Position numbers and translations under genes: made by a program
Shown here: in pieces, positions 51,325 through 61,138 of the stretch
How the letters are laid out: each line of letters opens with the position of its first letter
Position numbering within the stretch: the first letter of the stretch is position 1
Assembly: GCA_963810095.1 (NCBI GenBank)
Contig: CAWEMM010000007.1
Coordinates: 288,001 to 352,000, forward strand
DNA from: an uncultured Chloroflexia bacterium
Lineage (GTDB): Bacteria; Chloroflexota; Anaerolineae; CG2-30-64-16
DNA: 64,000 bases
Direction of reading: 5' to 3'
Notes under the pieces: generated by a model
The model's input: the letters and a program-made list of their open reading frames with translations, nothing else
Told to the model about the DNA's origin: nothing
Databases searched by the model: none

Positions 51325-51392
51325 GAGAAACCAGGTCTCTACCGCCATCCCGTCACTTCGTAACGTTGGCTGGCGCAGAAACCTGGTTTCTT
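51325..51392. repeat. REP-like family C (AGAAACCnGGTTTCT pair)
   Basis: AGAAACCAGGTCTCT and AGAAACCTGGTTTCT upstream of thyA. Confidence 0.8.
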
Positions 51393-51404
51393 GAAGAGTT
51401 GACC

Positions 51405-52199
51405 ATGCGCCAGTATTTGGACTTAATGCAGCACATTCTGGATCACGGGGCAGACAAGACCGACCGCACCGGCACCGGCACGCGCTCTGTCTTCGGCTAC
51501 CAGATGCGATTTGACCTTGCGGCGGGCTTTCCGGTGCTCACGACGAAGAAGCTGCACCTCAAGTCCATCATCTACGAGTTGCTGTGGTTCATCAACGGCG
51601 ACACCAACGTGCGGTGGCTGCAGGAACGCGGGGTGACCATCTGGGACGAGTGGGCGGACGCGGACGGCGAGCTGGGGCCGGTGTACGGCAAGCAGTGGCG
51701 CTCGTGGTCGACCGCGGACGGCCGTGTGGTAGACCAGTTGGCCGGGGTGATCGAACAGATCAAGCGCACACCCGACTCGCGGCGGCTAATCGTCAGTGCC
51801 TGGAACGTCGGGGAGATCGAGCGGATGGCGCTGCCACCCTGCCACGTGCTCTTCCAGTTCTACGTGGCGAACGGCCGCCTGTCGTGCCAGTTGTACCAGC
51901 GCTCGGTCGACGTGTTCCTCGGCCTGCCGTTCAACATCGCGTCGTATGCGCTGCTGACGATGATGGTGGCGCAGGTGTGCGACTTGCTTCCGGGCGAGTT
52001 CATGCACACGAGTGGCGACGCACACCTCTACCGTAACCACTTCGACCAGGCCCGCCTCCAGCTCAGCCGTGAGCCTCGGCCGCTGCCGCAGATGCGGATA
52101 AACCCGGCTGTCAAGGACATCGGTGGGTTCGGTTACGAGGACTTCGAGCTCGTGGGGTACGACCCGTATCCGCGGATCAAGGCGGACATCGCGGTATAA
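51405..52199 (+). CDS. thyA: Thymidylate synthase
   Basis: [51 protein letters not shown]. Confidence 0.97.
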
Positions 52200-52203
52200 G
52201 CAA

Positions 52204-52237
52204 AGAGACCAGGTTTCTGCCAGAAACCTGGTCTCTT
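52204..52237. repeat. Family C perfect hairpin between convergent thyA and ribF-archease; possible bidirectional terminator
   Basis: AGAGACCAGGTTTCT-GCC-AGAAACCTGGTCTCT. Confidence 0.85.
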
Positions 52238-52245
52238 TCTCTAGG

Positions 52246-53599
52246 TTACACGTCGAACGTGACTCGGGCCCGCCACCCTCCGGGCGTTTCCCGCACGTCT
52301 ACGTCGTAGAACGTGACCGCCTTGACTGCGGTGTGCGTGGGCGTGCCGTGGTAGCCGTAAGCCACGCCTCGCACGCCGCGGCTCGAGATTTCGTAGATCT
52401 CAAACCGGGTGTACATCTCCCCGCCCACTTCCTGCCCCAGGAGCAGCCGGTTAAGCCACCCGACGATGAGCTCCTCGAACCCATCCGCCTGCGCGCTGAT
52501 GGCGCGCGCCAGGCTAACCGGCCGGCTCTTGTCCACATCCTGCAACGAGTACATCGCGTCCGCGGCGTTGGCGAACAACTCGGCGGGGCCTGCACCGGCC
52601 ACGTCGACCGCCCAATCTGCCGTGTGCACCAGCTCGCGCCAGCCCGTACCATCTCCGCTTAGGGCGTCCGTTGGAGGCTGCGCCAGCATTGCCTGCGCCT
52701 GCTGCGCGTCCGCGCCGATTTGCGCCACGAGCTCGCCGATGTCCGCGAACTTCTTCTCCCCGCGCAGCCGCGCCATGAAGCTCAGGCCCAGCGTCTCGCC
52801 GTACAGGTCGCCGGCGAAGTCAAGCAGGAAGGCTTCGATGGAGGGATGGCCGTTGTCGAAGCTCGGACGCACGCCGATGTTGACCACGGCGGGATAGCCC
52901 CGGTCGCCGCGCCACGCCCAGCACGCGTAAACACCGTAAGCGGGCAGCAGGCGGTCTTCCGCGATGCGCAAGTTGGCGGTGGGGAACCCTAACTGCCGGC
53001 CGCGCTTCGCGCCCTCCACCACTTCGCCCCAGAGCCGGTAGGGCCGGCCCAGCAGTTCGGCCGCGGCCTCGACCGCGCCGTCCTCGCTCAGCAGGGTGCG
53101 CACGCGGCTGGAGCGGACCGGCTCACCCCGCCAGTCGTAGGGCGGGACCACGCGCAGCGCGAACCCCAGCTCGCGGCCTAGCTCCGCCAGGCGCTCCGTG
53201 TTCCCCTCGCGGCCCGCGGCCGAGCGCAAAATCCGGGCCGACCCATAGCTCGGCCAGCGGCAGGTGGGCCAACAGGTCGACCACGAAGTCTGGTGCGGAG
53301 GTCGCGGCGGTTCGCCGCGTGAACGGCAGGACGACGACGAAATCGAGCCCGAGCGCCGCGAGGAGGTCGGCGCGCTCTTCGTTGGTCGTCAGGCGCGGCA
53401 CCTTGACTTCGGGGCGCAGCACGGCCACCGGGTGCGGCTCGAAGGTCAGGAGGCCGGCCAGCCCGCCGTGCGCATGGGCAGCGGCCGAAAGACCGCAGAT
53501 GAGCATCTGGTGACCGCGGTGCACGCCGTCAAAGTTGCCGATGGTCAGGTAGACCGGGCCGGCGATGGGTGATGACGGAAACGAGTCGAAAACATCCAT
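52246..53599 (-). CDS. ribF: Riboflavin kinase/FAD synthetase fused to a C-terminal archease domain; frameshift near 53210
   Basis: TIGNFDGVHRGH, VGPDFALG, SSRVR, GRQLGFPTAN, NIGVRPSF, LRGEKKF, followed in frame by HTADW..ELF..AA.AM...KAVT...VTFDV (archease). Confidence 0.9.
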
Positions 53600-53638: not shown

Positions 53639-54538
53639 CTACTCTCCGGCGAACACTTTCTCGGGCCACCACTCTTCCCGCTCGGCGTCTGGGCGGAGGA
53701 TGGCGACAACCGCGCCGTCGTGGCTAAGCGCGTAGCCGTCCCGCGTCAGGCTGGCCGGGTGGCCGGCGATCGGTTGGCCGTTGCGTAGTCGCTTCACGTC
53801 ATCCTCGGACACGGGCACGGGCGTGAGTTGAGACAGCGCGGCATTCATCGGGTGCAGGTGCGGGGCCAGTTCGCCGGCGCGGTAAGCGTCCGCGACACTC
53901 TCCGGGCTCGAGCGCGTCGCCGACCAGGAAGCGGCCGCTCCGCGTGCGCCGCAAGCCCGACAGGGCCGCGCCGCATCCCAGCGCCTGGCCGAGGTCGTGT
54001 GCAAGGCTGCGGATGTAGGTGCCCGGCTCGCACGTGACGTCGATTGTCAGGCACGGCTCCGTCCAGTCGACAGCTGGATGCTGTGAATATGAACCGGCCG
54101 GGCCGAGGGCCGGACATCTTCGCCGCGCCGCACCCGCCGGTGCAGTGGCACCCCATCCTGCTTGATCGCAGAATAGGCGGGCGGCGCCTGCATGATGTCG
54201 CCGACGAAGCGGCCCAGCGCCACCCAGATCGCACCCCGGTCGATGTCAGGGCTAAGCGGTCGTGTTTCGACGACTTCGCCCTCCATGTCGTAAGTGTCTG
54301 TGATGGCGCCGAGCTGAACGGCAGCCCGGTAGGTCTTGTCCGAGGCCATCAGGTACTCGCTGACGCGGGTTGCCTGGCCCACGCAGACGAGCAGCACCCC
54401 GGTAGCGAGAGGATCGAGGGTGCCGGCATGGCCGACCCGTTTCACCTTGAGCACCCGGCGAATCCAGGCCACCACGTCATGCGACGTCCAGCCTTGCGGC
54501 TTGTCAATGTTCAGAATGCCGTCCACAGTATTTCCCAT
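53639..54538 (-). CDS. truB: tRNA pseudouridine-55 synthase; frameshifts near 54065 and 53905
   Basis: [48 protein letters not shown]. Confidence 0.93.
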
Positions 54539-54554
54539 CGATGAGAGCCTCGGA

Positions 54555-54625
54555 GAACACAAAGACACCAAGCCACCAAGACGCTGAGGTCTTAGGATGC
54601 CCTTGTGTCTTTGAGTCTTTGTGTT
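54555..54625. repeat. Family B inverted repeat between nrnA and truB
   Basis: AACACAAAGACACCAAG...CTTGTGTCTTTGAGTCTTTGTGTT. Confidence 0.75.
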
Positions 54626-55651
54626 GGCTCGGTCTTCTTCAGGCTCGCAGCCTGCACAAGCGGCAGGACGCGGGCCTCGGCATCGGCAAGCGGGCCCGGC
54701 AGGTTGCAGCCCGCGGCTTGCGGATGGCCGCCGCCGCCCAGGCTGAGTGCAACCGCGGCCACGTCGTACCCGGGCCTCGACCGGAAGTCCACTTCGATCA
54801 TGCCGGTCGCCAGTTCGTTGAACACGACGGCCACAGCCGGCTTCCGCCGCTGTTGATCAGCTGGCTCACCAGCCCGCCGTCGTCGTCGCCGTCAATACCC
54901 GCCGACTCACGCATCTCACGCGTGACCTCAGCCCACAGCACCCGGCCGTCGAGCCGAGCGCTCGAAAACGCCATCGCCCCACAGCCGCATGAACTTGAGC
55001 GGCCGGGTCGCCAGCGTCCGCTGCGCGATGTCGGCCAGGTTCGCGCCCGCCTCCATCAGCCGCACCGCGCAGGCCATCTCTGCGGCCGTCACGTTGCTGG
55101 TCCGGAAGCCCGAGCGTGTCGGTGACGAGGCCCACGAGCAGCGGAACGGCGGCAGACGCCGGCAGCGGCACGCCGAGGGCGTCGGCCAGCGCCACAACCA
55201 ACTGCGAGGTCGAGGCGCACTTCCGGCGCGACGTAGTTGAGGTCGCCGAAGTGCAGATTGGTGATGTGGTGGTCGATGACCAGCAGCGGGCGCGGGCGCG
55301 AACGCCAGGCCGGCGAAGATCTTGCCGAGCCGCGCCGGGTCGCTGGCGTCCAGCGAGATGACGAGGTCGGGATGCAAATCCGGCGGCAGCTGGTTGACGA
55401 TGCGGCCGTCCGCCGGTCTCGCGCCCGGCAGGAAAAGCAGCGATCTCGGGCGCGGGGTCCTGGCAGGCCAGCGTGACGCGGCCGGGCCGCCCGGCCAGCT
55501 CGGGCAGGGCATCGCAGCAGGTGCCCCAGCCCGAGGAGCGAGCCGATGGCGTCGCCGTCAGGGTTGAAGTGGCAGAACGCCACGATGTTCCTGGCCGCCG
55601 AGGATGTGCGGCTGCCAGGTCACTCAGCGCTGCGCTGTTCGGCGTCGGCAT
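54592..55651 (-). CDS. nrnA: DHH/DHHA1 phosphoesterase (NrnA-like); multiple frameshifts
   Basis: HFNPDGDAIGS, IDHH, VTDT.GFR, FRS...GGGGHPQAAG across frames. Confidence 0.85.
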
Positions 55652-56096
55652 GATTCTCCTGCTCGCGCGCGTCCTGCTCGGTTTCGTTCTGCGGCTCGGG
55701 GCGCATCGCCGTCGCCCGCACCGTCTGCGGTGCGGTCGGCGTCGCTGCTCGCTGCGATCTGGTCCAGGATCTCGTCGATACGCTGTGCGCGCTTCTCAGT
55801 CTCGTCGACGACGAAGTGCAACTCGGGCACGACGCGCAGGTGCAGGTTCTCGAGCAGCGAGCGGCGCAGGAACGTGGTCGAGTGCTGCAGTGCGCTCAAC
55901 ACGTGGCGCGATTGCGCGGGCGGGCAACGCGTGCTGGATGTACACGCCGCGCATTGCCCAGGTCGGGCGACACCTGAACGTCGGTGACTGTGACCATCGC
56001 GTCGTCGAGACGCGGGTCGGTCAGTTCACTGGCGATCAGGAGGCCCAGTTCCTCAGTCAATACCTCGGCAATACGTTCTTGCCGGCGAGAGGTCAT
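55624..56096 (-). CDS. rbfA: Ribosome-binding factor A; frameshifted
   Basis: [11 protein letters not shown]...DPRL...[24 protein letters not shown]. Confidence 0.9.
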
Positions 56097-58737
56097 TACA
56101 GTACCCGTTCCTTCTTGTAGGTCTCCAGGATGTCGCCGACTTCGAAGTCGTGGAAGTTGTGCAGGTTGATGCCGCACTCGAACCCCGTCTTGACTTCGGT
56201 CGCGTCTTCCTGGAACCGCTTCAGTGCGCGCGATCTTGTCTTCGGCCACCACCTCGCCGCCGCGCTTGACGCGCACGGACGAGTTGCGGGTGATTTCGCC
56301 GTCGAGCACCATGCAGCCCGCGATCTTGCCGACCTTCGAGACCTTGAAGACCGCCCGGATTTCCGCATGGCCGGTCACGACTTCCTTGTAGACCGGTTCG
56401 AGCAGGCCCGTGAGCGCCTTCTGCACATCCTCGATGATGTTGTAGATGATGTTGTAGATGCGGATGTCGACGCCCTCGGCCTCGGCCAGGCGCTGCGCGC
56501 CCGCTGTCTGCCACGACCGAGAAGCCGACGATGATGGCGTGCGACGCGATGGCCAGCATGACGTCCGACTCGGTGATATTGCCCGTGCCCTGGTGCAGGA
56601 TCTTGACCTTCAGCTTGTCGGTGCTCAGCTTCTCGAGCGAGTTCACGATCGGCTCGATCGAGCCCTGCACGTCGGCCTTCAGGATCAGGTTGAGTTCCTT
56701 CGACCTTGCCGGCCTCGGCCTCGGCGAAGATGCTTTCCAGCGTGCGCACGGGCGCGGGTCCTGCGGCCGCCTTCTTGGACAGCTGCCGCTCTGAAGCCAT
56801 GGAGCGGGCGGTGCGGTCGTCGGCGACGACCTTGAACGTCTCGCCCGCCACCGGCACGTCGGAGAAGCCCAGGATCTGGACCGGCGTCGCCGGCGGCGCC
56901 TCGGTGATCGGCTCGCCCTTGTCATCATACATGGCGCGAATCTTCGGCGTAGGTTTCCCCGCTCACGATGCTGTCGCTCACGCTGCAGCGTGCCGTTCTG
57001 GACCAGCAGGGTGGCCATGGGGCCGCGCTGCTTGTCCAGCCGGCTCTCGATCACCGTGCCCAGGCATTCGCCCTTTGGGTTCGCCGTCTGCGGGTCCACG
57101 TCGGCCAGCAGCAGGATGCTCTCGAGCAGGTCGTCGATGCCGCGGCGCATCTTCGCCGAAACCGGCACGCACATCACGTCGCCGCCGTACTCCTCGATGA
57201 GCACGCCGTTGTCCGCCAGTTCCTGCTTGACGCGGTCGGGGTTCGAGCTTGCGCCTTGTCGATCTTGTTCATCGCGACGATGATCGGCACCTGGGCCGCC
57301 TTCACGTGCGCGATGGCTTCTTTCGTCTGCGGCATGACGCCGTCATCGGCCGCCACCACCACGATCGCGATGTCCGTCACCTGCGCGCCGCGGGCGCGCA
57401 TGGCGGTGAAAGCCTCGTGACCCGGCGTGTCCAGGAACGTGATCTTGCGACCGTTGATCTCGACCTGGTACGCGCCGATGTGCTGGGTGATGCCGCCGGC
57501 CTCGCCTTCGACGACGCGGGTCTCGCGGATGGCGTCGAGCAGGGTCGTCTTGCCATGATCGACATGGCCGAGCACGACGACGACGGGCGGGCGGAGGACC
57601 ATGTCCTCCGCCTCTTCTTGCGCCATGATCTCGCTGGCGCAGGGTCTGCGGCGCGTCCTCCGGCTCGGCCGATACTTCAGGTTCCGCCGCGCTTCTCAGG
57701 ATGGACCGCGATGCCCAGTTCCTCGCCGATGAGCGCGGCCGTGTCGAAATCGATCGACTCGGTGATCGGCACCATCATGCCGTAGTTCATCGAGCGTCTT
57801 GATGATTTCGATCGGGCTCTTGCGCATCTTGTCGGCCAGGTCGCGGACGGTGATCATGTCCGGAATGATGATTTCCGTGACCGCGGCCGCCGCGGCCGCA
57901 CGCGCGAGACCTGGGTCAACGGCGGCGGTGCGAGCGTCTCGCCCGCGGGCAACTGCGAACCGCGGCCCCGCTGGCCGCCCTGCGGTCGCTTTTGGCCGCC
58001 CGGCCGCCCGGCTTGTGACGAGCCGCCGCCGGGCCGCCGCTGCTGGTCGGGCGCCTTGCGCGGTGGACCACCGCGGTCAGGTGCACCCGTGGGCGGTGTG
58101 CCGAAGCCCCCGCCACCCTGATTGCCGCCGAAACCGCCACCGGGCCGGCCCTGCGCTGGACCGCGGCCGGGGCCACCCTGTCCGCCATAGCCGCTCGGGC
58201 CACCGAAGCCCCCCGGGGCGTGGACCGCCGGGGCGTTGGCCGCCCACCGGTCGGGGACCACTGGGCGCGGGCCGCCCGCGCGGCACGACCGTGTCCTCGG
58301 ACGTCGGGTCGAAAACGCGCTGGTTGAAGGGTTCGTCGGGGTTTGCGGGCTGGCCGTCTGGCCGGACACCCGGCCCACCTGGCCGTGCTCCCGGTGCACC
58401 GGGCCCGGGGCCGCCGGGACGCGACGGCCCTGGTGCGCCCGCGCCGCCCGGCTTGGACGGGCTAGCAGGCTTGGCAGACGCCGGCGTCTTAGGCTGGCGC
58501 GCCGCATCATTGCGGGCCGCGTCGTTGCGCGCACCGTCACGCTGCGCACCGTCACCCTGCATCGCGTCGCTGCGGGGTGCGTTATTAGCGGGCCTGGCCG
58601 GCTGACCGAGGGTTGGGTCGTGTCCCGCCCTGCTGCGCACCCTGCCCACCGGGATTCCCGGGCCGTGCGGGTGTGTTGGGCTCGTTTTTTTCGTCTTGTG
58701 CCCGCTTGGGCTGATCATTCTTCGGGTCGTTTGCCAT
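56096..58737 (-). CDS. infB: Translation initiation factor IF-2 with long Gly/Pro/Arg-rich N-terminus; many frameshifts
   Basis: [56 protein letters not shown]; AGGAGG RBS before ATG 58737. Confidence 0.95.
58500..58575 (-). repeat. 15-bp tandem repeat (5 degenerate units) in the infB N-terminus
   Basis: Encodes [25 protein letters not shown]. Confidence 0.65.
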
Positions 58738-59106
58738 TAATCCATCCTCCTGTTGCCGGTAGGCCCGCCTCTCAGGAAGCGGGCCGCGAACGGCCAACCT
58801 GGTACGCGCCAGGGTGCTGCACCGCGTGAGTTGCACGAGCCGGCCGGTTCATATATAAGGTCAAACGACGGGGAAGGACAGGGGGTGTCAGAGGGAGCGG
58901 CTTAGAGGTCAACGTACCATAAGCCCTTCCTCGTGACGCCTCAGTCCTGCGCCCATCGGTTGTGTTGTGAGTTACGACCCACAACCTGCGGGGTGGCGCC
59001 CGCAACTAGCGGTCGCGTGGCCGCTACCATCACTTGCTCCTGTTACAGAGGTGGCGTGGATCCGCATGGAACAATCGCCCTCGACGGATCCACCCGATGC
59101 ATTCGA

Positions 59107-59444
59107 CTATTCCTCTGGCAGCGTCTCGGCGTACGCCTTCAACCCCGCCAGGTCTTCCTGCGTTATCGTCGTCTTCAGCGCCGCATTCAGCTTGTGAACA
59201 GCGCCGGGCCCTGCCAGCAGGGTCGCGCCTTGCACAGGTACGCCCCGCGGCCGGCCACCTTGCCCGTCGGGTCCACCCGAACGGCGCCGTCGGGCGTGCG
59301 CACGATACGCACCAGCTCGCGCTTGCCCCGCTCCGAGCGGCAGACCACACAGGTCCGCTGCGGCACGTGCTTCGGCCGCGGCCCCTTGGGCTTCGACCCC
59401 CCGGATGGCGCTTGCTTCGCCCCGGCTGCCTGTGCGGGCGTCAT
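59107..59444 (-). CDS. ylxR: YlxR/DUF448 family protein; frameshift near 59195
   Basis: HVPQRTCVVCR, ELVRIVR, GRGAYLC...C. Confidence 0.9.
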
Positions 59445-59450
59445 CGCGGC

Positions 59451-61138
59451 CTAGTATTCCCCAAGATCGCCCCAGCCGCCGCGGCCCGGCTTGCGCTTGC
59501 GCCGCGCGACGACCTGGCCCAGGTCCTCGTCGAACACCAGCTCGCGCTTCTTCGTGTCCTTCTTGGCCTTCTTGGCGGGCGCCTTCTTGGCACCGGCGGG
59601 CTGGGCCTCGCCGTCTTCTTCGTCGTACTCGACTTCCTCGGCCGGGAACGCTTCGGGGACGAGGAGACCTTGCCGTGCCTCGACCATCGTCTGCGGCTCG
59701 ACTGCGACACCCGCAACCTCAGTCGACGGTGCGGCGGGCTTCGACGGTCTCGGGCGCGGCCTCCGCCTCGATCGTCTCGGCGGGCGCAGGCGCCGCGGCC
59801 TCGACAGCCTCGGGTGCGACCTCTGCCTCGACCGGTTCGAGCTGCGGGGCTTCGCCCTCGGGGGCTTCCTGCTCCACCTGCGGCAGCTCGAGGCGGTTCT
59901 GATCTGCATGGGCCAGCAGGCGTGCCGCCGTCTCGAGCGTCGCCTGCGACTTGTCTCGCTCGCGGAGCAGCCACTCGGCCCGGCTCAGCAGGTCGTCGCT
60001 CGGCGGCAGCGCCGCGGCCTTGTCCTGCAGGCTTCGGGCGCGGATCATCTGCATCTGCTGGCGCTTGATCTCGGCCAGGCCCTCGGTGGCAGCCTCGGTC
60101 TCGCTCTTGATGTCGATGCGCCAGCCCGTCAGCTTGGCCGCCAAGCGGGCGTTCTGGCCTTCCTTGCCGATGGCCAGCGACAGCGAGCGGTCGGGAACCA
60201 CCACGATCGCCGTGCGCAGGTCGCCTTCCTCGATCAGGATCGTGTCGGTCGGCTTGGCCGGGCTCAGCGCATTGCTGATGAAGTTGCGCACATCGGCCGA
60301 CCACTCGACCACGTCGATCTTCTCGCCGTTCAGCTCGTCGACGATGTTCTGGATGCGCGTGCCGCGCAAGCCGACGCACGACCCGACCGGGTCGACGCCG
60401 GGCTGGCTTGCAGAAACGGCCACCTTCGAGCGCTGGCCCGGCTCGCGCGCAATGCTCTTGATCTCGACCGTGCCGTTATAGATCTCGGGGATTTCCCGCT
60501 CGAGCAGGCGGCGGAGCATATTGCGGTGCGTGCGCGAAAGCCGGATTTGCGGCCCGCGCGTGCCCTTGTTGATCTCCGCCAGCAGCGTGCGCACGTTCAT
60601 CCCGACGCGGTAGCGGTCGTTCGGCAGCTGGTCTTCGGCCGCAATGATCCCCTCGGCCTTCTTGCTGAGGGTGACGGTCACCGCATTGGAGCGGTAGTCA
60701 ATCGACTGCACCTGGCCGGTGATCAGCTCGCCTTCCCGCTGCTTGTAGAAGTCATACAGCTGGTCACGTTCGGCCTCGTGAATGCGCTGCAGGATGACCT
60801 GCTTCGCGGTCTGCGCGGCGATGCGGCCGAAATCGGCCGGCTGCGCGTTGGTCAAGGATCGTGCCGCCCACCTCGGCATTTTTGTCGATCTTGCGTGCCT
60901 CGGCGAGGGTGATCTCCGTCGCCGGGTCTTCAACCGTCTCGACGACCGTCTTCTCGCACGTGACCTGCAGATCGCCGGATGTCGGGTCAATCGACGCCTG
61001 CACGTTCGCTGTCGCGCTGGCGTAGTTTTTCCGGTAGGCGTGGACCAATGCTTCTTCGATGGCTCCCAGGATCACATCGCGCGGCAGCTCCTTTTCCGCG
61101 CAAATCTGGTTAACAGCCATGATCAGCTCTTTGCTCAT
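59451..61138 (-). CDS. nusA: Transcription termination factor NusA with acidic C-terminal extension; frameshifts
   Basis: [14 protein letters not shown]1 and KH domains, [42 protein letters not shown]. Confidence 0.95.

Follow-up and report, generated by a model that had tools for sequence, protein, structure and literature searches.

The minus-strand gene at 52246–53599 of the window, by which we mean the whole 64,000-nucleotide stretch of Chloroflexota DNA analysed here, encodes a type I FAD synthetase (RibF) whose riboflavin kinase module continues in frame into an archease domain. This RibF-archease fusion is genuine and common to many related bacteria. We consider it likely that the gene product is a true three-domain protein that derives from a row of adjacent ribF, archease and rtcB genes, and that its archease tail is still an activator of the RNA ligase RtcB, predicted to be docked on RibF. 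Most likely, the archease module would insert its tip into the RtcB whose gene lies on a different contig, supplying there the third metal site for RtcB guanylylation, with the RibF modules making FMN and FAD as usual.

Domain organization and locus

The 5' part of ribF (53215–53599, minus strand) starts with an ATG at 53599 and encodes the FAD_syn (FMN adenylyltransferase) module in frame −1 up to a frameshift. In the Pfam profile search, PF06574 matches residues 15–133 of the ORF 53123–53599 (E = 1.7e-33), and the HxGH-type nucleotidyltransferase motif is present as GNFDGVHRGH. The 3' part (52684–53200, minus strand, frame −2) encodes the end of FAD_syn and the riboflavin kinase module, with Flavokinase at 52684–53052. 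It belongs to the minus-strand ORF 52246–53229, whose 327 amino acids contain kinase domain, linker and archease domain in one frame: PF01687 covers residues 60–182 (E = 1.5e-42, model positions 1–124 of 124) and PF01951 residues 197–327 (E = 6e-23, model positions 1–136 of 136). The PTAN motif of the kinase is found as GFPTANL, and the NCBIfam RibF models align to residues 6–184. Taken singly, the two RibF pieces stay under the NCBIfam equivalog cut-offs, for example with 180.6 and 113.3 bits against 295 for NF004160. These matches bear out an earlier note made from the letters of the window, which had read a kinase, a short linker and an archease in one frame and had named FAD_syn, Flavokinase and Archease as the families to look for; all three are matched. 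Its assignment of 52246–53599 to a RibF-archease protein holds for the domains, whereas the single open frame does not, FAD_syn lying in another frame.

The linker between kinase and archease, taken as the gap between the two Pfam envelopes, measures 14 residues (52642–52683, minus strand). Among 97 fused homologues, the stretch from D297 to E319, both invariant, spans 16–49 residues with a median of 28 and is not conserved in sequence. The archease domain of 131 residues (52249–52641, minus strand) reaches the C-terminus of the protein, and the TAA stop at 52246–52248 on the same strand follows directly on ...TFDV, which leaves the C-terminal carboxylate free. With PF01951 the domain scores 82.1 bits within the 327-residue ORF and 85.5 bits alone, the cut-off being 25; with NCBIfam PRK00407 it reaches 56–60 bits, under the equivalog cut-off of 126. 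It aligns to the Pyrococcus horikoshii archease 4n2p (E = 1.6e-7) and to MTH1598. The motifs LVHTADW, KAVTFY and terminal VTFDV are found as quoted in the earlier note, but KAVTFY is not the unusual variant it was taken for: among 104 fused proteins the Lys is invariant and the last two positions vary between YY, YH, FY and FH, and the solved MTH1598 archease has KAVTFH.

The gene order nusA, infB, rbfA, a DHH/DHHA1 gene, truB and ribF is as claimed before, and ribF follows truB in many bacteria. Downstream lies the intact and convergent thyA (51366–52199). RNA folding finds a strong hairpin between the two genes at 52198–52241, with −28.9 kcal/mol and a z-score of −7.1, and 0 of 200 shuffled sequences fold as well; a consensus terminator scan at the locus returned nothing but a trivial 5-bp stem. 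The hairpin is likely a two-way terminator, and in that case the fused gene ends its operon there. Within the window archease is not placed beside rtcB; the gene ends at the hairpin facing thyA. The absence of rtcB noted earlier holds locally but not for the genome, which has a single, intact rtcB on a different contig. We also considered a further RibF or archease and dropped the idea, the genome search giving the ribF-archease gene as the only flavokinase match and the only archease match in a genome that is 88.5% complete. As the sole copy of both, standing at the end of a nusA-infB-truB-ribF row, the gene fits the earlier suggestion of archease being hard-wired to a translation-operon gene that is essential.

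Distribution and origin of the fusion

Across the class, 12 families and 44 of 201 genomes have the same architecture, a count in which related genomes are not independent observations. The junction is read through without interruption in 20 of 24 genomes of the same family; the remaining four carry frame-broken or cut pieces, and none has two genes. All five same-genus genomes with an unbroken gene read straight across the junction. Relatives that always keep two genes, which the earlier note had held would speak against a fusion, were therefore not what we found. In a 45th genome (G042), ribF and archease are separated by an in-frame TAG. Unbroken genes of relatives encode 441–471 amino acids, and their start ATG is aligned with Met1 of the window gene in 40 of 40 intact locus genes. 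In protein databases, more than 300 clusters contain the fusion under the name "RibF" only. PF01687 and PF01951 occur together in 104 of 104 fused proteins from one search and, in a second search with 207 matches, in all of the best 120 of the 207; most of these (the 104 and the best 120 of 207) also have PF06574 and a length of 441–515 amino acids. A phylum-level search of 401 genomes at E ≤ 1e-50 gave fused forms in two genomes only (G000 and G020), from a sample that holds few of the fused families of the class and at a threshold that could miss diverged fusions. A literature search found no published description of the FAD_syn-kinase-archease architecture, and no PDB entry spans all three domains in the structure search, in agreement with the earlier remark that the architecture is unfamiliar from characterised proteins.

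The relatives' gene rows point to the origin of the fusion. ribF, archease and rtcB stand as three adjacent genes in 11 loci, ribF and archease without rtcB in one further locus, and the fusion with rtcB directly downstream in 10 loci. Where archease is free, rtcB adjoins it in 26 of 31 loci, 11 with ribF upstream as well and 15 without. The three genes stay adjacent in many families, perhaps owing to a functional tie with flavin synthesis that our reading takes as incidental.

In a tree of RibF plus archease we find a 27-row all-fused clade with an SH-aLRT of 99 and five changes between fused and separate, at least two of which are forced by well-supported branches. The archease-only tree (72 rows, 134 columns) has seven changes on the best tree, of which well-supported branches force one; it is too short for counting fusion events, for which the RibF plus archease tree was used instead. 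The archease of the window falls in a 14-row all-fused clade (f1) with an SH-aLRT of 100. We propose that the fusion arose from a ribF-archease-rtcB row in an Anaerolineae-type class of Chloroflexota, that the fusing event would have been the loss of the ribF stop, and that rtcB moved elsewhere later in the window's family. Because archease needs its free C-terminal carboxylate, the junction between ribF and archease is the only one in this row that could be fused without harm.

Conserved residues and co-occurrence with RtcB

Both partners of the fusion retain their signature residues. Among the 97 homologues, G21, D24, G25, H27, G29 and H30 of FAD_syn are invariant and P206, T207, A208 and N209 of the kinase invariant or nearly so. 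In the archease part of these fused proteins, D325, K423, A424 and D446 show no variation, although overall identity falls to 39%. Comparing 72 domains of the class, 41 fused and 31 free, we find the Asp of HTAD in 72 of 72 and its His in 68 of 72; the Lys of KAVT is kept in all 72, and so is a C-terminus consisting of Asp plus one residue, in fused and free domains alike. The ending x[TL]xD[VI] is present in 103 of 104 database homologues. The conserved positions align to D51, K156, D178 and the I179 carboxylate of human archease and to H9, D12, K117, D141 and I142 of the P. horikoshii protein. According to the available text of the mutational studies, changing or deleting those residues in the human and P. 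horikoshii proteins abolishes or drastically reduces RtcB activation. The same excerpts describe the HTAD His and Asp (P. horikoshii H9 and D12, human D51) as a metal ligand required for RtcB activation and the terminal carboxylate as a metal ligand in both proteins, with the conserved Lys (K117 and K156, respectively) sitting beside the metal site. From this conservation we infer that the fused archease would activate RtcB.

The distribution of RtcB is consistent with such a role. RtcB is found in 43 of the 44 fusion genomes, that of the window included, as the earlier note had suggested looking for; the exception is G086, where the contig ends 280 bp past the gene. In 35 genomes without archease, RtcB matches do not get better than E = 4.6e-96, and 14 of these genomes have no match at all. 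[quoted passage not shown] 2014 (PMC3973293) and Desai et al. 2015 (PMC4604427).

In three genomes RtcB is not found by family or protein query in metagenome assemblies that are 94–97% complete (G038, G131 and G215), and in each of them RibF carries a decayed archease. The archease of G038 scores 20.1 bits, under the cut-off, and its His, Lys and terminal Asp are gone. For G131 the match is limited to model positions 7–73. G215 has a TAG after an HTAD-like motif, with about 47 residues still recognisable. The two RibF domains in front of the decayed tails are both intact, with E values of 1e-40 or better. We take the decay of the tail where RtcB is not found as natural-history evidence that the fused archease works for RtcB.

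Predicted docking of archease on RibF

AlphaFold2 predicts a same-genus protein with a pLDDT of 92.8 and a pTM of 0.91; for an f48-type protein the pTM is lower at 0.81 and the linker is disordered. The archease (SHS2-type) fold of the same-genus model, which is not the window protein itself, matches 8btx, 1jw3 and 4n2p with TMt values of 0.73, 0.77 and 0.72, and the model superposes on RibF 2x0k with a TMt of 0.82 at 35% identity. Predicted as a complex, RibF 1–303 and archease 314–447 score 0.82, while the best of three controls scores 0.00. This mark was attained by 58 of 80 solved complexes, against 2 of 110 mismatched pairs, counts that are approximate because the alignment was our own. 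With no three-domain entry in the PDB, the model has not simply reproduced the docking of a known complex structure. Between runs, at least 91% of contacts are the same, with a partner pLDDT of at least 87, and the predicted interface comprises archease residues 359–367 and 399–409 and excludes the tip. Fused archeases are not significantly more hydrophobic than free ones at the interface columns: 1187 of 10000 random column sets gave an equal or better result, and with the f1 clade removed the number rose to 5625 of 10000. The sequences thus lend the predicted interface no support of their own. Going by the model, archease may dock by its beta-sheet face onto RibF with the tip left free.

A docked archease raises the question of whether its target is RibF itself. 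It could act in cis, either helping the adenylyltransferase, perhaps through the placing of metal and pyrophosphate that it performs at RtcB, or regulating or stabilising the FAD synthetase, so that flavin synthesis would be linked to RNA repair. The contrast between the docking score and its controls, together with the pTM of the same-genus model, speaks for such a role, as do the ribF-archease adjacency or fusion held across many families and the decayed archease-like tail of about 130–140 residues that G038 and G131 retain and that could be structural. The interface, however, avoids the HTAD Asp, the Lys and the C-terminus, and its hydrophobicity is not distinctive. The tip residues are just as invariant in the 31 free archeases, sister lineages run a standard RibF and a separate archease, and where RtcB is not found it is the tip residues that decay while the RibF domains stay intact. 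Overall we regard an action in cis as unlikely. The narrower proposal of the earlier note, a nucleotide-exchange chaperone for the FMN adenylyltransferase, finds no footing for the same reasons: the catalytic tip lies outside the predicted interface, free and fused archeases share the invariant residues, and three genomes combine an intact RibF with a decayed tail where RtcB is not found.

A further possibility, which we likewise hold to be unlikely, is that RibF-archease might form a rigid platform that recruits RtcB and thereby physically couples flavin-cofactor synthesis to RNA ligation. In one version, argued by analogy, this would be a bacterial counterpart of the alternation of PYROXD1 and archease on the RtcB active site; in another, occupancy by archease or RtcB would feed back on FAD synthesis. 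The class-wide ribF-archease-rtcB row, the confidently predicted interface and the decayed tail that is kept where RtcB is not found are compatible with a platform of this kind.

Frameshift and assembly quality

The frame of ribF is broken at 53201–53214 (minus strand), where the window has one surplus base relative to the frame of all intact relatives. In tblastn, the proteins of relatives match from 53599 to 53201/53204 in frame −1 with 68–78% identity and, between 53214 and 53201, pass over into frame −2, which fits one surplus base in ...GGGCCGCGAG.... Both halves of ribF are 68–78% identical to relatives and contain no further stops. Directly upstream, truB (53639–54571, minus strand) carries two compensating frameshifts in the assembly: the TruB of a relative follows the window in frame 2, changes to frame 1 between about 54075 and about 53915 and then returns to frame 2, and an in-frame stop is present at 54047–54049. 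infB, rbfA, the DHH gene and nusA are likewise broken up. With neighbouring essential genes damaged in like manner, the surplus base in ribF is probably an assembly indel and not a real mutation. Programmed frameshifting in ribF was dropped as an explanation, since the neighbouring genes carry similar breaks.

RibF is normally indispensable, and the gene holds the only flavokinase match of the genome. A true pseudogene, with the frameshift at 53201–53214 being real, would account for the frame that is broken in the assembly; it is improbable in view of this single match, of two halves that have stayed close to their relatives without acquiring stops, and of the similar damage in neighbouring essential genes, which points to the assembly. 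Very unlikely, too, is a fused archease that has become an inert passenger, with no function left at RtcB or at RibF. Such a passenger would agree with rtcB being unlinked in the window's family, but the catalytic residues and the Asp-plus-one ending are invariant over 97 proteins, which is unexpected without selection, and the domain does decay where RtcB is not found. That the fusion in this genome is an artefact, two adjacent genes merged by indel errors near 52650–52661, can hardly be maintained: the assembly is rich in indels, other families do have separate adjacent ribF and archease genes, and the out-of-frame TAA/ATG pair that the earlier note had placed near 52652–52661 exists, but this ATG lies outside the archease frame, so that a reading as two genes would take no fewer than two indels in a stretch of about 25 bases, and it runs against the read-through in same-genus and same-family genomes and the position of the domain inside the all-fused f1 clade.

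Comparison with known systems

The fusion resembles stand-alone archeases (4n2p, MTH1598 1jw3, human 8btx, and 8odo/8odp with RTCB) in the full-length model match and the fold, in the same HTAD His/Asp, Lys, penultimate Asp and free C-terminus, and in the co-occurrence with a high-scoring RtcB. In contrast to these free proteins of about 16 kDa, the archease domain is covalently joined by its N-terminus to a 310-residue enzyme on which it is predicted to pack, and in the window's family it is not located beside rtcB. With the type I FAD synthetases of Corynebacterium ammoniagenes (2x0k) and Thermotoga maritima (1mrz; TIGR00083/PRK05627) it shares both modules and their motifs, but at its C-terminus it bears an additional, third domain that is about 134 residues long. 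Similar to the archease-rtcB 'tRNA splicing operon' (PMC3973293, PMC4604427), the archease of relatives, free or fused, directly precedes rtcB; unlike in that operon, ribF is added upstream and partly fused, and the pair lies on separate contigs in the window's family.

The metazoan flavoprotein PYROXD1 is described in the accessible part of the source as guarding the RTCB active site (PMC12263435), and archease and PYROXD1 are reported to exclude each other in binding to one and the same surface of RTCB (Gerber et al., PMC10944509, as excerpted). Here, too, RtcB would be the meeting point of archease and a protein related to flavins, a parallel that is conceptual only, as RibF makes flavin cofactors and is no flavin-dependent oxidoreductase. 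An FAD synthetase that has gained an extra domain is also described for plants, where the fusion partner is an inactivated FAD pyrophosphatase (PMC9678776, as far as the excerpt goes). There, both the type of FAD synthetase and the partner are different, and the plant partner is inactivated, whereas the archease described here has kept its catalytic residues.

Implications

Archease-dependent RtcB ligases cannot be activated without archease, which, to our knowledge, has been treated until now as a small free protein. By gene names alone, genomes of the kind described here would be scored as lacking archease, which constitutes a blind spot of annotation. For the biochemistry of RtcB and archease, the fusion makes a naturally tethered archease available, and it prompts the testable question whether RibF comes into physical contact with RtcB. 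The order of the fused parts is in line with the solved mechanism, in which the C-terminal carboxylate has to stay free. A whole group of Chloroflexota carries archease only as the tail of an essential FAD synthetase.

Results

The earlier note had described a RibF protein running in frame into an archease domain, and Pfam profile searches agree. On the minus strand, the ORF 52246-53229 (327 aa) contains two complete Pfam domains, Flavokinase (PF01687, residues 60-182, E 1.5e-42) and Archease (PF01951, residues 197-327), with a linker of 14 residues between them. The Archease match covers model positions 1-136 of 136 and scores 82.1 bits, where the cut-off is 25. The protein ends in ...TFDV, followed by TAA. 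The FAD_syn module (PF06574, E 1.7e-33) is located within a second minus-strand ORF, 53123-53599, which overlaps the first in a different frame. One continuous gene is therefore present only in part: kinase and archease are in frame, but the assembled gene is frame-broken inside the adenylyltransferase module. For proteins of intact relatives, the match runs in frame -1 as far as 53201-53204, and in frame -2 it begins at 53214. This switch points to one surplus base that splits ribF in the stretch near 53201-53214.

The break is very probably an assembly indel, since truB, infB, rbfA, DHH and nusA are broken as well and this fused gene holds both the sole Flavokinase match and the sole archease match in the genome, which comprises 6.13 Mb in 16 contigs and is just 88.5% complete by marker genes. 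Directly upstream of ribF, truB (53639-54571, minus strand) has two frameshifts, near 54075 and near 53915, that compensate each other, and it is interrupted by an in-frame stop at 54047-54049; its middle of about 160 bases, with the conserved TruB core motif, lies in another frame. For nusA, infB, rbfA and a DHH/DHHA1 gene (54592-60990, minus strand), we find only Pfam fragments, scattered across a number of overlapping ORFs; thyA (51366-52199, plus strand), by contrast, is intact. The assembly is rich in indels, which may also explain its low completeness despite so few contigs. The junction can therefore not be proven from the window alone, and the proof comes from relatives.

Between the convergent thyA and ribF-archease genes lies a near-perfect palindrome of 17-20 bp (52198-52241). 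Folding of this hairpin at the end of the ribF-archease gene gives -28.9 kcal/mol and z -7.1, and it is probably a two-way terminator.

When the architecture is searched in relatives, as the earlier note proposed, the match across the kinase-archease junction is uninterrupted in 20 of 24 same-family genomes, with open frames of 447-670 aa. The remaining four genomes (G001, G007, G008 and G011) contain cut or frame-broken pieces, and ribF and archease are seen as two genes in none of the 24. Within the Anaerolineae-type class sample, the kinase-plus-archease match is contiguous in 45 of 201 genomes and fused in 44, spread over 12 families (f1, the window's own, f6, f8, f12, f17, f18, f22, f24, f35, f38, f46 and f48); in the 45th, genome G042, an in-frame TAG separates ribF and archease. 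In all 40 intact genes at the compared loci, the start codon is an ATG that lines up with Met1 of the window's gene, and the products are 441-471 aa long. Two archease-domain queries of the protein database returned 104 and 207 matches. PF01687 and PF01951 occur together in all 104 matches of the one and in all 120 listed of the 207, and most of the matches listed also contain PF06574. The listed matches carry only the source names "riboflavin kinase/FMN adenylyltransferase", "RibF", "SHS2 domain-containing protein" and "archease, partial", and the organism, where named among them, is a Chloroflexi or Anaerolineae bacterium. A phylum sample of 401 genomes, which includes few of the fused families and was searched at a strict E <= 1e-50, shows fused forms in the window's own genome (G000) and in G020 only. 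We conclude that the RibF-archease three-domain protein is real and conserved.

Gene order was compared over 72 loci. Separate ribF, archease and rtcB genes are adjacent on the same strand in 11 loci (L024, L046, L049, L051, L052, L054, L058, L067, L068, L073 and L074), and ribF and archease only are neighbours at L045. The gene rtcB directly follows the fusion in 10 loci (L021, L025, L028, L031, L032, L034, L038, L039, L040 and L041), and in several families, the window's among them, the fusion occurs with no adjoining rtcB. At L024 (G042:C572, 1818-3218, minus strand), ribF and archease share a frame with a single TAG between them and rtcB next, a state that is one substitution short of fusion. 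Genome G177 (85% complete, 4% contamination) contains the fused gene twice, on contigs C106 and C325, with rtcB after one copy only, which could be a strain mixture or a real duplication.

The unrooted RibF+archease tree (52 rows, 434 columns, excluding the window's broken gene) contains an all-fused clade of 27 rows from f1, f22, f38, f35, f8 and f46 with an SH-aLRT of 99, and separate and fused forms are mixed in its other half. Five state changes are needed, and at least two are forced by well-supported branches. Fusion or fission therefore occurred more than once, in a direction that an unrooted tree does not give.

The window's genome encodes one intact RtcB, the RNA ligase activated by archease, on another contig (485 aa, E 1.3e-173). 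The neighbours of rtcB at this locus (L001, G000:C6, 1-4305) are MoaA-like radical SAM, IscA-like Fe-S-cluster biosynthesis and B12-binding radical SAM genes; an RNA-repair context is not seen, with neither rtcA nor rtcR in these 4.3 kb. RtcB is found in 163 of 166 class genomes with archease and in 43 of the 44 fusion genomes; in the exception, G086, the contig ends 280 bp past the fused gene. Among the 35 class genomes lacking archease, 14 are without RtcB match and 21 have weak ones only (E 4.6e-44 to 4.6e-96). Archease presence goes with one type of RtcB, in keeping with the division of these ligases into archease-dependent and archease-independent forms (Desai et al. 2015, PMC4604427). 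RtcB occupies open frames of about 700-1060 aa in some 15 genomes of the class, L059 (G037:C1, 620-3613, minus strand) being an example; the Pfam match starts only at model position 46, and each of these genomes has a second match. These frames look like the result of an insertion near the N-terminus, possibly an intein.

Neither the family model nor the RtcB protein of the window's genome finds a match in genomes G038 (97% complete), G131 (94%) and G215 (96%), each from a different family (f15, f22 and f8). Their RibF domains FAD_syn and Flavokinase are intact (E 1e-40 or better), while the archease tails are decayed. The G038 tail (L076) scores 20.1 bits, below the cut-off, over model positions 1-100; it lacks the His, the Lys and the terminal Asp and has an extended C-terminus. 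The G131 tail (L078) reaches 27.7 bits over positions 7-73 only and has lost Lys and the terminal Asp. In G215 (L075), a TAG directly follows the HTAD-like motif, and about 47 residues are recognisable on read-through. An open-frame tail of about 130-140 residues is retained in two of the three, L076 and L078.

The AlphaFold2 model of a 447-aa protein from the same genus, built on an alignment of 97, has a mean pLDDT of 92.8, a pTM of 0.91 and a short, ordered linker; that of an f48-type protein reaches 89.4 and 0.81 with a disordered linker. Foldseek matches the same-genus model to the FAD synthetase of C. ammoniagenes (TMt 0.82) and, with TMt 0.72-0.77, to the human, P. horikoshii and MTH1598 archeases, and this search yields no solved structure spanning all three domains. 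Complex prediction of RibF 1-303 against archease 314-447 supports binding with a score of 0.82, the best of three controls reaching 0.00; of 80 solved complexes, 58 reach the mark applied, as do 2 of 110 mismatched pairs, and these counts are rough here, since a custom alignment was used. Contact agreement between runs is at least 91% and partner pLDDT at least 87. Predicted contacts join RibF 31-42, 78-84, 184-185 and 227-236 with archease 359-367 and 399-409, leaving the tip uninvolved. Extra hydrophobicity of the archease interface columns in fused forms is not significant, and docking of archease on RibF therefore counts as predicted only.

Discussion

In the solved structures of human RTCB bound to Archease, the Archease tip reaches into the active site of the ligase: a third Mn ion is held by D51, D178 and the I179 terminal carboxylate, the phosphate is held by K156 and D178, and guanylylation is abolished in D51A and K156A (PMC10944509). 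For P. horikoshii archease, activation is drastically or severely reduced by substitutions of H9 and K117, in D12A and D141A, and when the last residue is deleted (PMC3973293). In an alignment of the window's domain with its P. horikoshii counterpart, HTAD, Lys and the penultimate Asp all stand in register. D325, K423, A424 and D446 are invariant in 97 fused proteins with identity down to 39%, and the same columns are equally conserved in 41 fused and 31 stand-alone archease domains of the class. KAVTFY, taken in the earlier note as a departure from the usual KAVTYH, falls within normal variation on comparison with other archeases. The archease part probably still serves RtcB.

A partner is tolerated at the archease N-terminus and not at the C-terminus. 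The orientation of the fusion is explained by the RtcB-activation mechanism, which needs the archease C-terminus free of a partner; in a ribF-archease-rtcB row, ribF-archease would be the sole junction that can be fused without destroying the metal site.

The strongest evidence that RtcB, rather than RibF, is what selection on the fused archease depends on comes from the decayed tails, which occur where RtcB is not found while the RibF domains stay intact, in three cases and in incomplete genomes. An action of archease in cis on FAD synthesis, such as the nucleotide-exchange chaperone for the FMN adenylyltransferase considered in the earlier note, is unsupported and improbable.

The genomic context of archease was reportedly the subject of a 2004 study. 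We found no paper on a RibF-archease fusion in the literature outside most subscription journals. The fusion combines known parts rather than forming a new system, and is so far unremarked. If the predicted docking is true, it would leave the catalytic tip of archease free, and it could account for decayed tails being retained on RibF.
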